A program made the position numbers. Positions 428 to 45,327 of a DNA stretch of 64,000 nt are shown piece by piece (positions within the stretch are counted from its first letter, which is position 1; each line of letters starts with the position of its first letter). This DNA is from Octopus sinensis (lineage: Eukaryota), in contig NC_042999.1 of NCBI RefSeq assembly GCF_006345805.1, positions 123,318,001 to 123,382,000 of the forward strand. The letters are read 5' to 3'.

Positions 428-3400
428 CATAGGAGTAGCTGTGTCGTAAGTAGCTTGCTTACAGACCACATGGTTCCGGGTTTAGTCCCACTGCATGGCA
501 CCTTGGGCAAGTGCCTTCTACTATAGCCTCGGGCCGCCCAAAGCTTTGTGAGTGGATTTGGGAGACGGAAACTGAAAGAAGCCCATCATATATATGTTTG
601 TGTGTCTGTGTTTGTCCCCCCAACATCGCTTGACAACCGATGCTGGTGTGTTTACATCCCCGTAATTTAGCGGTTTAGCAAAAGAGACTGATAGAATAAG
701 TCCTGGGGTCAATTTGCTCGACTGAAGGCGGTGCTGCAGCATGGCCGCAGTCAAATGACTGAAACTAGTAAAAGAGTAAATATGCAATTAATGCTGGCTG
801 CATAGCTGTCAAACAGTTTGGTATTGTATATACTCTAACTCTGAAATATGCATTCTACATATATATAAATGTCATCATTACATTTAGTAAGATCAAGGTT
901 ATACAAATTCACGTGTATGCTTATCCAGCCCAACATTAATGATAATAATTTGTTATTTAAATTTTTGTTTGTTTTCTTCAGCTTGTGATGTATGTAAGGG
1001 GACGGAGTATGAAATCACACCTTGTCGAGCTGCCCAAAACAGAAAATGTATTGGTAAGTTAATTTACTTTTTCAAATTTAGGCAAATATTAAATCAGTTT
1101 GGAAAAACTTAATTTCACTTACCTTTAGGACTTCACTTGATTTATTAATTGTTTATTTTTATTTTTCAGCTTAGCTTAAAAATTGATGCTTACATTGGAA
1201 ACTTAAAATAAATCAGCAAGGAAACCTGTACGCAGTCACTTGACCTGCTAGAGATAGCGACTAAATCTCACCTTACCACCTTAAAAAAAGGAGTATATTA
1301 AATACACTGTTTCTGAAAAGAAGTCAGAGTGGTCATGACTGGAAAGTCTTTGCCAGTGTTCTCCTTAATCTAGAACAAACTTAAACAGCTTTTATTTATT
1401 TTCCTATCAGTTTTTCTCTAGGGCTTAATGACTACAACAAGGACTAAAAACATGAAATGTTAGCATTTTCTATATTCATTTTATTTTACATGTTGCTTAA
1501 CACTTCAAGGGCAAAATTGTTTAGCATAATATTTATCATCATGGTAAAATGCAATGATGTGTATATTGTATGTCAGTGATGACACAACAGGATCTAAAAT
1601 TTCATTGTAATTAATACAAAGACTGTAAATAAGCAATACTGGAAATGACTTCAAGAAATATAAGATTCTAAGGGCCACAGATGAGCTCTTTTATAGTTCT
1701 TAATAATTTTGGTGTCTTTGTAATTTAATTGTTGATGTTTTGTCAATCTATTGGTAGTTAATTGCATCATTCTTCCTTTCTGAGGGTGGTGAGCTGGCAG
1801 AATAATTATCATGCCAGGCAAAACGCTTGTTGGCATGTTATCTATCTTCACATTCTGAGTTCAAATTCTGCTGAGGTTGACTTTGCATTTAATCCTTTTG
1901 GGGTCGATAAAATAAGTATCAGTTGGACACTAGGGGCAATGTAATTGATTTATCCTCATCCTGAAATTGCTGGCCTTGTACCAAAATTTCAAACCATTCT
2001 TCATTTCATAATATAGCAGTGACAACAGTCATAATAATGAAGAAAAAGAAGTCAACTAGTTTGCTTATACTATCCACAAAGGACTATACAAAACAGCTGG
2101 TTTTATAATCTGCAATACATTACTTAGTTTATTGTCCTTTTCTCAGTTCAGTTGATCTAGAATTTATTTTGGGGAAGGATTGAACAATAACATTATAGGC
2201 TCTGACTCTGACCAAGAACATTTAACTATGTACCTATCTGAGCAATATGTAAAGTAACACCTCATTTAGAAACAGAAACAACACAATGTTTAATTCTTCT
2301 GTTTTACAGTCATGTTTGAATATTTAAATGAAATATTCATTCTTTGTTGAATATGCAGATTCAATTACTTTTTCCCTTGGTATTTCAGATGTCACTTTCC
2401 CCACACATCAAATTAGATATGATGGTAAAACCTGTTCAAAAGTTGCAGGTATGTTTTATGTCTTTTTTTTAATATGATTTATTTTAAATTTCTAACATTT
2501 CAATTTTGCTTGATTAAAAAAAAAAAAGTCATATGATAATTAACCTCTTTCTGTGAATAAATAAAGATATTGCATTAGTAAAGTGAAATGGGAAAACATT
2601 TGTCAACCACACGTTAACTTAGGTCATTTTTAGAAAAATGTGCGTAGGAGCGGCTGTGTGGTAAGTAGTTTGCATAGGCGTAGAAGTGGCTGTGTGGTAA
2701 GTAGTTTGCTTACGAACCACATGGTTCTGGATTCAGTCCCACTGCATGGCACCTTGGGCAAGTGTCTTCTACTATAGCCTCGGACCGACCAAAGCCTTGT
2801 GTGTGGATTTGGTAGACGAAAACTGAAAGAAGCCCGTCGTGTGTGTATGTATATATATATATATATATATATATGCATGTGTGTATATGTTTGTGTGTCT
2901 GTGTTTGTCTCCCCAACATCGCTTGACAACCGATCCTGGTGCGTTTACGTCCCCGTAACTTAGCGGTTCGGCAAAAGAGACTGATAGAATAAGTACTAGG
3001 CTTACAAAGAATAAGTCCTGGGGTCGATTTGCTCGACTAAAGGCGGTGCTCCAGCATGGCCACAGTAAAATGACTGAAACAAATAAAAGAGTAATGGAAA
3101 ACAGCAAACTATTAGTAAAATTGAACAACTTAACTTATGATGTCAGCCTATCTATCTTCATTGCTCCATAGACCGGAAAGCAAATTTGTTACACTATTTG
3201 TTATGAATTTAGCAACTACTAAGTAAGTTAATTTCAACAATCAATTGAATCATTAGAGCATCATAGAAAAAGCCATGCAGTATTTGTTCCAGTTCTTTAC
3301 ATTCTGAGTTCAAATCTTGCTGTGGTTAACTTTACCTTTCATCTTTACAAGGTCAATAAAATAAAGTACCAATCAAGAATTGGTGTCAATTTAACCCTTT

Positions 3401-43500: not shown

Positions 43501-45327
43501 GCTTTTAAATAAAGTTTTGGAAGATATCTGCAACATTATGGGAAACACATCATCTTCATCATCACAGACTTCATGTAGCTCGCCACCATCACTTCCTACC
43601 ACCACAATTACCTCGTGTAACTTCATGTCCATCCAGCCACAGTTTTATGATGGTTAGTATCTTAGAATATCAAAAATATTATTTCTTAAACATTGAATTA
43701 TTTCCACCATATTCTTTTATTATATATTTATAAACAACTCATCTTAAAAATAAGTTTTATTGTTATATACTTATTAGAAAATCTCCAGTCAAGATATTTA
43801 GTATAAATGAACTTAAATACTGCTTTGATTAAGTATTGATAATTTGCTATCATTTACTGTTTAATTTTATGCTTTAAACTTAATTTGTATCCATTTCATA
43901 TTATTTAAACTTACAATAATTCGTATTTCTTTTTTATTTATTGAGATGTTAAGTTAAACCTATTTTTATTTGAAAATGATGACTAATTAGAAAACATTTA
44001 TCTTCCAGGAATTCTTCAAGAGGTCTCGGTCCAGCTCCTCCAAAATAACCTCACAAGTACAGAGCTAGCGAGCCGACAGATGGTGTTCCACAGTGTATAT
44101 CTGCTTCTGTTCCTCGCCTGTGGCATGTTTTTGAGTCATGCAGTTGCACAAGTCATAAACTATTACGTCTTTCATGAAAGCAAGGTCCCTATTTTGAGGA
44201 TCTATCAGACAACGAGCTCATCTTCCCCGTGGCCCGAGCATCACAACTGTACCGTTAAGGACATGCACCGTAGCGCCTCCTGGCTACAGAGCAGTGAAAG
44301 TGGTGTATACCTTGGAGACAATGAAGAAAATGTGCGTGAATCCGCTATGTAAATAGAAACAACCCCTACTCACTTCCCTCCTACCTGGATTCCTGGGATA
44401 TCCTTGGCTGCTCCAGTTTCCTCCTTACAATTAGGAGGTTTCTGGATTCATTACAGTGGCATGCCAACATATCTCCAGACCATAACCTGGAGGAGTAACT
44501 CACAAATTTGTGTTCTTAGGATTGTGTAATCTATTACAAGTGGACACAGCATTCATCCTGGACAATAGATGTTGGTCATATTCCTACAAGATCATGCTAT
44601 TGTTTCTTAGTTCATATTTGTCCATCCGGTGACAATAAGAAGAAGTCATTTTAAATAAGTAATCATCACTATCAAATGAATGTTTCCAGGAAGCAATGAG
44701 AAATGAAGTAAAATGAGGAAAGAGGCTTTCCCTTTCGCCAATAGCTGTTTGGTACATGATGCCTGCACTTTTCCCAGTCATGCTCTGAAGGAAAAAAAAA
44801 AAATGATGCTAAAAATATATTGTTATTATTCAACTCCCCAAACCCATCATGAGAAAGAGAAGGCAAACGAGTTTAAAGTTAAAGCAAACAAACAAAATGA
44901 ATGGAGTATCTAAAATGTGTATGTTTGTATTTAGGTGTATGTAAGAGAACTTAGCTTTCAGTTTGCCTTCGGTCTTTCCAGAAAAATATATGCAAGCAAA
45001 TCATATTACATTGCCTGCCACTCATCAATCCTTATTTTAATCAGTTGTTATTAATTTCATTAAAAAAAAAACGAAACAAAAACAATAAAAAATATACATA
45101 GTATACAGATATGTATATATGTGTAATACATTACACAAATATACATGTGTCTGTGTATATATGTATGTAAATTCATACGTATATAATAGAAGTCTAGGTA
45201 GACTGATAGATAGAAAAACTAGTACCTCCAAGTACTTAGTTATCATGACCAAGGATGGAAAGTTTTGTGGGAAATCTGCTTTCACTTTACAAAAATGTAC
45301 TGAAAAGAATCTTTGCATTGAAAAATT

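Follow-up and report, generated by a model that had tools for sequence, protein, structure and literature searches.

A predicted class II fusion-protein fold in the ectodomain of an uncharacterized multi-pass octopus surface protein

What kind of protein is made from the one recognisable gene, on the + strand, of a 64-kb stretch of the Octopus sinensis genome (64,000 nucleotides of contig NC_042999.1, positions 123,318,001 to 123,382,000; we refer to this whole stretch as the window)? An initial annotation, drawn up from the sequence alone, described an unnamed pentaspan membrane protein with a giant ectodomain containing tumour necrosis factor receptor (TNFR) repeats, and considered that it might represent an undescribed class of invertebrate receptor. 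Here we lean towards a different view, namely that the gene, a conserved spiralian one, codes for a surface glycoprotein of the multi-pass type, with a main ectodomain of the class II fusion-protein (fusexin-like) kind, and that this protein may fuse cells. To our knowledge, no fusogen is known for molluscs, annelids or nemerteans.

The gene has 12 exons on the + strand of the window, running from 982 to 44352 with the stop codon included and corresponding to residues 232-1639 of O. sinensis LOC115209230. The exons were mapped by tblastn of RefSeq isoform X4 of LOC115209230 (P0109; 1639 amino acids (aa)), whose residue numbering is used throughout, and of the Sepia pharaonis protein CAE1248089.1 (P0079) onto the window. 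Every exon boundary, read from the flanks, is AG/GT, phases are consistent across all 12 exons, and exon 10 is 100% identical to isoform X4, which is annotated as "uncharacterized protein". Note that only the 3' three quarters of the gene fall within the window, the 5' exons (aa 1-231) lying upstream of it; window exons were searched one by one, and whole-protein steps used database proteins. The initial annotation placed the start at 982, an acceptor at 25190 and the end at 44352, all of which coincide exactly with this map, as does its joining of the ectodomain exons to 25190 in one gene. We reject the possibility of two separate genes in view of the RefSeq and Sepia models, of more than 15 orthologues and of a contiguous 1401-aa open reading frame (ORF) on a 4.6-kb contig (P0070), all of which span both the ectodomain and the multi-span core.

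The ectodomain and its predicted fold

How far do the TNFR repeats account for the ectodomain? On the whole of isoform X4, Pfam finds one EGF module (EGF_3) and two TNFR_c6 repeats at aa 170-256, the repeats forming two stretches (aa 194-256) that score 32.2 bits against a cut-off of 29.4; TNFR_c6 is present in 16 of 19 family members (Pfam, E<=5). The TNFR-type repeats thus make up about 60 residues of the whole protein (<4%), some 24 of them in the window, where exon 1 alone is TNFR-like and encodes one partial repeat (TNFR_c6 E=4e-4, 21.2 bits, under the 29.4-bit cut-off). TNFR and EGF modules together cover about 90 of the roughly 770 ectodomain residues. When the family profile was compared with PDB sequences, these two kinds of module were the sole matches, the repeats of TNFRSF10/11 being hit weakly (E 0.05-0.2). 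The giant TNFR-repeat-containing ectodomain originally proposed is therefore reduced to two short repeats, and the further repeats expected upstream amount to the first of the two, accompanied in the full-length protein by the EGF module and an N-terminal anchor, all outside the window. The protein shares two TNFR_c6 repeats with TNF receptors, which are single-pass type I receptors with a cytoplasmic signalling part (death domain or TRAF-binding tail); it differs from them in being multi-pass, in devoting less than 4% of its length to the repeats and in giving no match to a death or other signalling domain in Pfam.

The approximately 570 residues that follow the TNFR repeats are without any Pfam family. 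We modelled this part with AlphaFold2 on 720 residues of the Lottia orthologue (P0127), the first row of a 19-row alignment (A3); the Lottia stretch is 36% identical to Octopus, aligns collinearly and has its Cys residues conserved. The model is beta-rich, with a mean predicted local distance difference test score (pLDDT) of 80.7, pLDDT >=80 over most of residues 120-690 and a predicted template modelling score (pTM) of 0.63. A Foldseek search of PDB with this model returned 287 matches at E<=1e-3, the best being hantavirus Gc at 1.4e-9. All 43 of the matches listed are class II fusion proteins, for most of them with probability 1.00, and they include phlebovirus Gc, flavivirus E, alphavirus E1 and the Atlas virus envelope protein as well as the cellular fusogens EFF-1 (4ojc, E=9.8e-8) and HAP2 (6dbs, E=1.3e-7). 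Against BFVD there were 156 matches at E<=1e-3, reaching down to 6e-10; among the 50 listed, the 41 that carry a name all come from viruses of the bunya-, alpha-, flavi- and nido-like kinds and are envelope glycoproteins or polyproteins; they include bunyavirus-type glycoproteins, one of them from a snail virus.

The arrangement of parts along the chain is also that of class II proteins: a beta module is followed by an immunoglobulin (Ig)-like sandwich, a variable stem and a TM (transmembrane) span. The model is consistent with a three-domain, beta-rich ectodomain, at global TM-scores (template modelling scores) of at most 0.29, and the Ig-like domain III (aa 779-842) leads through a poorly conserved 26-aa stem to a C-terminal anchor, TM1. 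Conservation is highest in the beta module (0.26-0.40) and lowest in the stem (0.06). The best-conserved stretch of all is exon 3 (0.40), which carries the motif NVFxERL...LETxMYxTNNQQ...WxRxSGL...PEYxD and whose tblastn identity to Sinanodonta, Nucella, Patella and Haliotis is 46-57%. On the strength of the model, we consider it probable that the ectodomain has a class II fusion-protein fold, a fold that is invisible to the eye in this Cys-rich sequence and had been missed in the initial annotation.

Within the module, exon 7 encodes an aromatic loop with the pattern QF.KPF.YSS..W...GC.KN.S, in which Q664, F669, W676, C681 and Q692 are invariant in 20 of 20 aligned proteins and which is kept from molluscs through annelids to a nemertean. 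We infer that it is a candidate membrane-insertion (fusion) loop; its strong conservation suggests a retained membrane-active role.

A number of observations weigh against this reading. First, Foldseek TM-scores are only 0.11-0.19 by query and at most 0.29 by target, with a root-mean-square deviation (rmsd) of 20-26 Å, so that the fold match is local and rests on an alignment in the 3Di alphabet over some 600 columns, although low global superposition would be expected if hinge angles differ. Second, sequence searches are silent: HAP2-GCS1, EFF-AFF and the viral class II families are absent from the Pfam results listed for isoform X4 and four orthologues (E<=0.1) and for 19 members (E<=5; 43 families found, the first 25 listed), TNFR_c6 and EGF-type families alone being given among those listed, in 19 of 19 members, and the family profile finds no class II match among PDB sequences. 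Third, the model was built on the Lottia orthologue rather than on the window's own product, from a shallow alignment of 19 sequences, and the connectivity of domains I and II and the placement of the loop were read along the chain rather than in three-dimensional coordinates. Along the chain, the aromatic loop itself takes the position of the second segment of domain II, as we read it, and not that of the canonical cd loop. Finally, we know of no class II fusogen with N-terminal EGF/TNFR modules, a second N-terminal anchor or a five-span C-terminal module.

Might the fold match then be a false positive, the ectodomain being an elongated adhesion domain of a new kind, rich in beta strands and disulfides, that resembles class II proteins in the 3Di alphabet only? 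The low TM-scores, the high rmsd, the 19-row alignment and the missing sequence-profile signal would all fit. If the match were spurious, however, we would not expect it to be so consistent: the 43 listed PDB and 41 named BFVD matches are all class II or envelope proteins and represent two cellular families and five or more unrelated families of viruses, the core model described below gave no such matches, and no generic Ig, FN3 or lectin folds appear among those listed. The good local confidence over most of residues 120-690 and the succession of domain III, stem and TM span, which fits class II independently of Foldseek, point the same way, and we regard a false positive as quite unlikely. 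Should the fold nevertheless be wrong, what remains is a correctly described, uncharacterized, lineage-restricted membrane protein.

Topology and the five-span module

In the part encoded by the window, 637 residues (aa 232-868) precede TM1. A Kyte-Doolittle scan finds five hydrophobic spans, all of which AlphaFold2 models as helices. A 41-aa Pro-rich loop separates TM1 from TM2. The loop between TM2 and TM3 has 258 aa and two N-glycosylation sequons (NTT, NHT), that between TM3 and TM4 has 107 aa, and that between TM4 and TM5 has 137 aa, two sequons (NTS, NLT) and three Cys; a 64-aa tail comes after TM5. This layout bears out the initial annotation in its Cys-rich N-terminal region of more than 630 aa, its five spans and its loops, sequons and Cys counts. 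Thirteen of 14 N-x-S/T sequons and all invariant or nearly invariant Cys fall in predicted extracellular parts. The hydrophobic stretch of TM2, 37-39 residues long, is modelled as a single helix and may comprise two spans instead of one.

The proposed pentaspan layout with an extracellular N-terminus holds for the window part. Full-length proteins, in contrast, carry an additional hydrophobic segment, which lies some 35-120 residues from the N-terminus and is encoded upstream of the window: residues 1-231 include about 100 cytoplasmic residues, followed by a hydrophobic anchor or internal signal. Because of this segment there are six spans in the whole protein, unless it is removed as an internal signal, and only if it is cleaved would the layout apply to the protein as a whole.

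Two peculiarities of the orthologue models concern the same region. In Patella (P0088), Haliotis (P0094), Mya (P0131), Aplysia (P0130), Bradybaena (P0112), Tubulanus (P0064) and Owenia (P0097), two or three hydrophobic segments precede the EGF module; these extra N-terminal segments, within 350 aa, may reflect longer isoforms or merged gene models. In Sepia (P0079, about aa 143-430), the EGF module is separated from the TNFR repeat by some 290 low-complexity S/F/L-rich residues; the Octopus protein lacks a counterpart, so the insert is probably a translated intron.

To what does the five-span module correspond? The core model is an AlphaFold2 prediction of the C-terminal 866 residues of the Sepia protein from a 51-row alignment (A2), with mean pLDDT 70.3 and pTM 0.44. 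In model numbering, it begins with a small beta sandwich (7-68), the TM1 helix (97-129) and a disordered Pro-rich loop, continues with a 110-residue helix that opens as TM2 (170-279), a 50-residue return helix, a poorly predicted stretch and TM3 (466-502), and proceeds through a partly disordered cytoplasmic loop to TM4 (609-634), a 72-residue helix (647-718), a Ser/Thr/Pro-rich tip and a 53-residue helix that finishes as TM5 (756-808). As modelled, four long helices would thus stand outside the membrane. Conserved features of the core are Y956 in TM2, the TM3 residues D1255, L1258 and R1262, the cytoplasmic motif K(E/x)DIL..IW and, in the two extracellular loops, four Cys that are invariant or nearly so.

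Searches with the core returned little. Foldseek against PDB gave no match at E<=0.001 and nothing at E<0.03, the best rows being Ig-like and MG domains that match the beta sandwich (the first 70 residues). The exon 9 profile produced only chance TM and coiled-coil matches among PDB sequences (E>=0.0098), and exon 10 produced none. Pfam, run on eight ORFs of the window, found no family for the core; AI-2E_transport (0.013) and CD20 (4.9e-4) were both under cut-off and at chance level. In the ESM Atlas, exon 10 had no usable match, and the Sepia core matched protist clusters at no more than 0.76, which we did not use. We also predicted a complex of both extracellular loops with the class II-like module, without alignments, and obtained a score of 0.00 against a mark of 0.34; the partner's own fold was uncertain in at least one ESMFold2 run, and we draw no conclusion from the result. 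No characterised family was matched over the full length of the protein by Pfam, by profile searches of PDB or by Foldseek of the core, as the initial annotation had anticipated.

That annotation had likened the layout to that of prominin and Tweety (TTYH) and had also named DC-STAMP proteins, and this bears on a second explanation of the protein, in which a ligand-binding or adhesion receptor sits on a prominin- or Tweety-like, membrane-shaping or channel-like pentaspan core and has no part in fusion. Prominin and TTYH have five spans and two large helical extracellular loops. The window part of the octopus protein shows this layout, with its extracellular N-side, short first cytoplasmic loop, two large loops with helices of 110, 50, 72 and 53 residues, and cytoplasmic tail. 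TNFR_c6 and EGF_3 are, moreover, the sole Pfam families found, and an invariant Asp and Arg in TM3 would be in keeping with a polar site within the membrane. Prominin-1 is called a pentaspan protein in the portion of PMC10659291 available to us.

Several observations argue against a receptor of this kind. The TNFR and EGF modules account for a small part of the ectodomain, the remainder of which matches class II fusion proteins. Prominin, Tweety and DC-STAMP families are absent from all the Pfam scans listed (window ORFs, isoform X4, orthologues), and neither the Foldseek search of PDB with the core nor the ESM Atlas provides a usable lead. Pfam scans (isoform X4, four orthologues; 19 members) show neither a death domain nor another signalling domain in the cytoplasmic parts. 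Unlike prominin and Tweety, the octopus protein has a conserved 107-aa second cytoplasmic loop, an ectodomain that adds about 770 residues and, in the full-length proteins, the sixth, N-terminal hydrophobic segment as an extra anchor. The likeness is therefore one of layout only; keeping in mind that the pTM of the core model is only 0.44, a distant relation of fold to prominin may exist. Overall, we think a non-fusogenic receptor unlikely. Of the undescribed invertebrate receptor class proposed at the outset, it stands that the protein is uncharacterized and that its named homologues come only from Mollusca, Annelida and Nemertea; a role as "receptor" is less likely than a fusogen-like one.

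Inheritance and the gene in its window

Is the gene an old cellular one? Exon 9 (P0001, 384 aa), searched against 1.84 billion representative proteins, has 76 relatives at E<=1e-3, of which 35 reach E<=1e-10 and 8 reach E<=1e-30; 30 of the 76 match clusters were looked up, and the 13 with an organism name comprise 10 from Mollusca, two from Annelida and one from Nemertea. With the ectodomain region of isoform X4 as query, nine proteins were found, all molluscan. All homologues are labelled "uncharacterized", "hypothetical" or by domain names. A search for longer proteins with exon 10 and with a 41-row exon 9 profile retrieved the gene's own RefSeq protein alone, the word index being too insensitive at 25% identity. 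At least 15 collinear orthologues carry ectodomain and multi-span part in one protein: in gastropods and a chiton (Lottia, Patella, Haliotis, Nucella, Batillaria, Aplysia, Bulinus, Bradybaena, Plakobranchus, Liolophura), in bivalves (Mya, Sinanodonta, Potamilus) and in annelids and a nemertean (Owenia, Paralvinella, Tubulanus). In the literature searched, which did not extend to supplements or subscription journals, LOC115209230 and nine other orthologue identifiers are not mentioned and no spiralian class II fusogen is described.

A maximum likelihood (ML) tree of 20 full-length proteins, obtained by a quick search and containing four long branches, follows the species tree, with Mollusca, cephalopods, bivalves and gastropods each supported at 100% in the Shimodaira-Hasegawa-like approximate likelihood ratio test (SH-aLRT). 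This agreement suggests an old cellular gene and vertical inheritance. Octopus and Sepia are 92% identical over the whole length (branches 0.03 and 0.05), while Octopus is 26-31% identical to the other aligned molluscs; judged from these sequences, the Octopus-Sepia identity seems very high for a protein so divergent elsewhere among molluscs. A distant subgroup of about 700 aa (P0041, P0065, P0068) shares the motif FGAFLPVEEVE.VQLW, and Sinanodonta has a second locus (P0024), both of which point to paralogues or further lineages.

The viral proteins at the head of the fold search might suggest another history. Imagine that the class II module were an ancient captured viral envelope gene, similar to bunyavirus Gc, that became fused to host exons and was put to a use other than fusion, such as blocking of virus receptors or adhesion. 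The best Foldseek rows are indeed viral (hantavirus Gc in PDB, and in BFVD bunyavirus-type glycoproteins such as that of the snail virus). In viral polyproteins, a hydrophobic segment acting as internal signal precedes Gc, E and E1, and the octopus ectodomain is likewise preceded by one. Capture of a class II envelope gene by a cell has a precedent in Atlas virus, going by the accessible part of PMC9094657. On the other hand, the E-values of viral and cellular (EFF-1, HAP2) matches lie within two orders of magnitude, so close that no donor can be named, and the evidence does not tell whether transfer went from virus to cell or in reverse. The many introns and the species-like tree over three phyla imply that any capture predates the mollusc-annelid-nemertean ancestor. 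The strong conservation of the candidate loop also suggests that a membrane-active role was retained. We see only a slim chance that the module is a captured gene in non-fusion use.

The exons and parts of the protein are located in Table 1. At the exon 5/6 junction (14671-14683, 19577-19599), the Sepia model is without 16 residues that are present in the O. sinensis RefSeq model, and Lottia has a Cys at the position of one of these; the difference between Sepia and Octopus reflects either alternative splice-site use or annotation. The ORF at 14838-15098, one of the eight window ORFs scanned with Pfam, is not an exon.

Table 1. Exons of the octopus gene and the protein parts they encode (window coordinates; residues as in isoform X4)
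Feature	Position	Strand	Residues	Description
Exon 1	982-1053	+	232-256	Second TNFR-type Cys-rich repeat (tblastn, Pfam TNFR_c6)
Exon 2	2389-2448	+	256-276	Linker from TNFR repeat to class II-like module; mean identity to Octopus 0.17 (poorly conserved)
Exon 3	5637-5925	+	276-372	Start of class II-like module; beta strands assigned to domain I
Exon 4	9144-9321	+	372-431	YCRHPxPDYY motif, long beta hairpin strand, onset of Cys-rich elongated part assigned to domain II
Exon 5	14497-14683	+	432-494	Class II-like module, Cys-rich part with conserved Cys
Exon 6	19577-19708	+	494-538	Cys-rich part (CC..C....C)
Exon 7	21141-21722	+	538-732	Class II-like module, beta-rich body
Conserved aromatic loop QFSKPFEYSSMTWHNGGCGKNSSKIYPAQ	21518-21604	+		Candidate fusion loop (translation, invariant columns, coil between strands in model)
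Exon 8	21916-22038	+	732-773	Final strands ahead of domain III
Exon 9	25190-26345	+	773-1158	Domain III, stem, TM1, Pro-rich loop, TM2, first part of extracellular loop 1
Domain III	25207-25398	+	779-842	Ig-like beta sandwich
Variable stem	25399-25476	+		26 aa
TM1	25477-25572	+	869-900	
Pro-rich cytoplasmic loop	25573-25695	+		41 aa
TM2	25696-25812	+		
Exon 10	29250-30195	+	1158-1473	End of extracellular loop 1, TM3, cytoplasmic loop, TM4, start of extracellular loop 2
TM3	29491-29574	+		Invariant D1255, L1258, R1262
Second cytoplasmic loop	29575-29895	+		107 aa; conserved K(E/x)DIL..IW motif
TM4	29896-30009	+		
Exon 11	43496-43652	+	1474-1526	Tip of extracellular loop 2, Ser/Thr/Pro-rich; C1485, C1500, C1514 nearly invariant
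Exon 12	44009-44352	+	1526-1639	Descending helix, TM5, 64-aa cytoplasmic tail, stop
TM5	44077-44157	+		
Stop codon	44350-44352	+		TAA

The window around the gene is AT-rich (26-40% G+C in 2-kb steps), contains no N and is rich in interspersed repeats and in runs of (TA)n/(TG)n. Scanning it for Rfam families and tRNA genes gave no match. Downstream of the stop, no coding region was recognised in 44353-64000: ORFs of at least 70 aa are repeat-derived or without Pfam match, and of three scanned with Pfam two gave nothing and one gave a match below cut-off only. Of the seven ORFs that were scanned in addition to the eight named above, having been taken for retroelement remnants or possible downstream genes, five yielded nothing in Pfam and two only below-cut-off matches. 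The many "YIYIYI" ORFs on both strands are due to (TA)n/(TG)n microsatellites, long tracts of which include 321-470, 10755-10930, 39437-39680, 41755-42100 and 45268-45900.

One interspersed repeat family (D4, D5 and the inverted pair I1) has copies at 423-778, 2674-3093, 11052-11216 and 23261-23433 and an inverted copy at 27181-27373. The copies are 62-92% identical, lie in several introns and in both orientations and have no tRNA or Rfam match; the family is probably a short interspersed nuclear element (SINE)-like one. A second repeat (D7, 82% identity; 16091-16181 and 17451-17541), with similar ORF translations at 15985-16224, 17381-17668 and 41284-41529, sits in a patch that is richer in G+C (0.397 at 16001-18000) than its surroundings (about 0.30). 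Within the 13.3-kb intron between exons 10 and 11, an inverted repeat (I4; 41517-41649 and 41664-41796) of 133 nt, 88% complementary and with a 14-nt spacer, looks like a hairpin or an element resembling a miniature inverted-repeat transposable element (MITE).

Comparison with known fusogens

How might a protein of this architecture act? Arguing by analogy, we tentatively suggest that the octopus protein has fusion activity. It would merge membranes between cells, whether gametes or somatic cells, in the class II manner: the aromatic, disulfide-braced loop would insert into the facing membrane, the molecules would trimerize, and domain III and the stem would fold back, drawing TM1 to the inserted loop. 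The five-span module and the EGF/TNFR repeats could regulate, hold, bind or target the fusion module. Viral class II fusogens have companion proteins (prM, E2, Gn), which such built-in regulators would resemble, as they would MAR1 for Chlamydomonas HAP2. More tentative still is the idea that the gene founds a Spiralia-wide family of class II fusogens beside HAP2 and EFF-1/AFF-1, acting on gametes or somatic cells and carrying its companion parts built in.

With viral class II proteins (bunyavirus Gc, flavivirus E, alphavirus E1), the octopus protein shares its predicted beta-rich fold, the order of Ig-like domain, stem and TM span and a disulfide-rich elongated part. It differs in being encoded by a cellular, intron-rich gene that is vertically inherited in three animal phyla, in adding EGF/TNFR modules and four TM spans whose helical extracellular loops total about 400 residues, in having no evident separate companion protein and in lacking sequence similarity.

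HAP2/GCS1, the gamete fusogen of eukaryotes, is likewise a cellular protein with a class II fold, as its match to 6dbs indicates; the octopus protein, in contrast, has five spans after the ectodomain and no match to Pfam HAP2-GCS1 (which we take to be PF10699). In HAP2 the ectodomain is followed by a single TM with a tail in the cytoplasm according to the available part of PMC9259645, and HAP2 is reported as lost in most bilaterian lineages in the accessible text of PMC2766252. Such loss leaves room for another fusogen. EFF-1 and AFF-1, the somatic fusogens of C. elegans, are again cellular and of class II fold (4ojc), but there is no Pfam EFF-AFF match in the octopus family; EFF-1 is single-pass, and we know of no spiralian members of its family. 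A precedent for several TM spans after a fusexin ectodomain is archaeal Fsx1, whose class II-type ectodomain is followed by three spans in the protein studied and by one to four in its family, as far as the portion of PMC9259645 at hand describes it. Fsx1 differs from the octopus protein in having a signal peptide, an extra domain IV and TM spans that are without large loops and dispensable for fusion (same portion of PMC9259645, where HAP2 and Fsx1 were assayed for content mixing and syncytia in BHK cells). It is not among the 43 PDB rows listed for the ectodomain model. Judging from the models, the octopus family would share the fold of the fusexin superfamily yet belong to none of its sequence families, and its architecture would be new.

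Why does this matter? In most bilaterian animals it is not known which protein joins the membranes of sperm and egg, and a class II-fold candidate present in three phyla is directly testable. If our reading is true, the fusexin superfamily would be extended to a new architecture, in which EGF and TNFR repeats stand ahead of the fusion module and a helical module of five spans is attached behind it. The finding would then bear on how class II fusogens are restrained without a separate companion, and on the flow of genes between viruses and cells.

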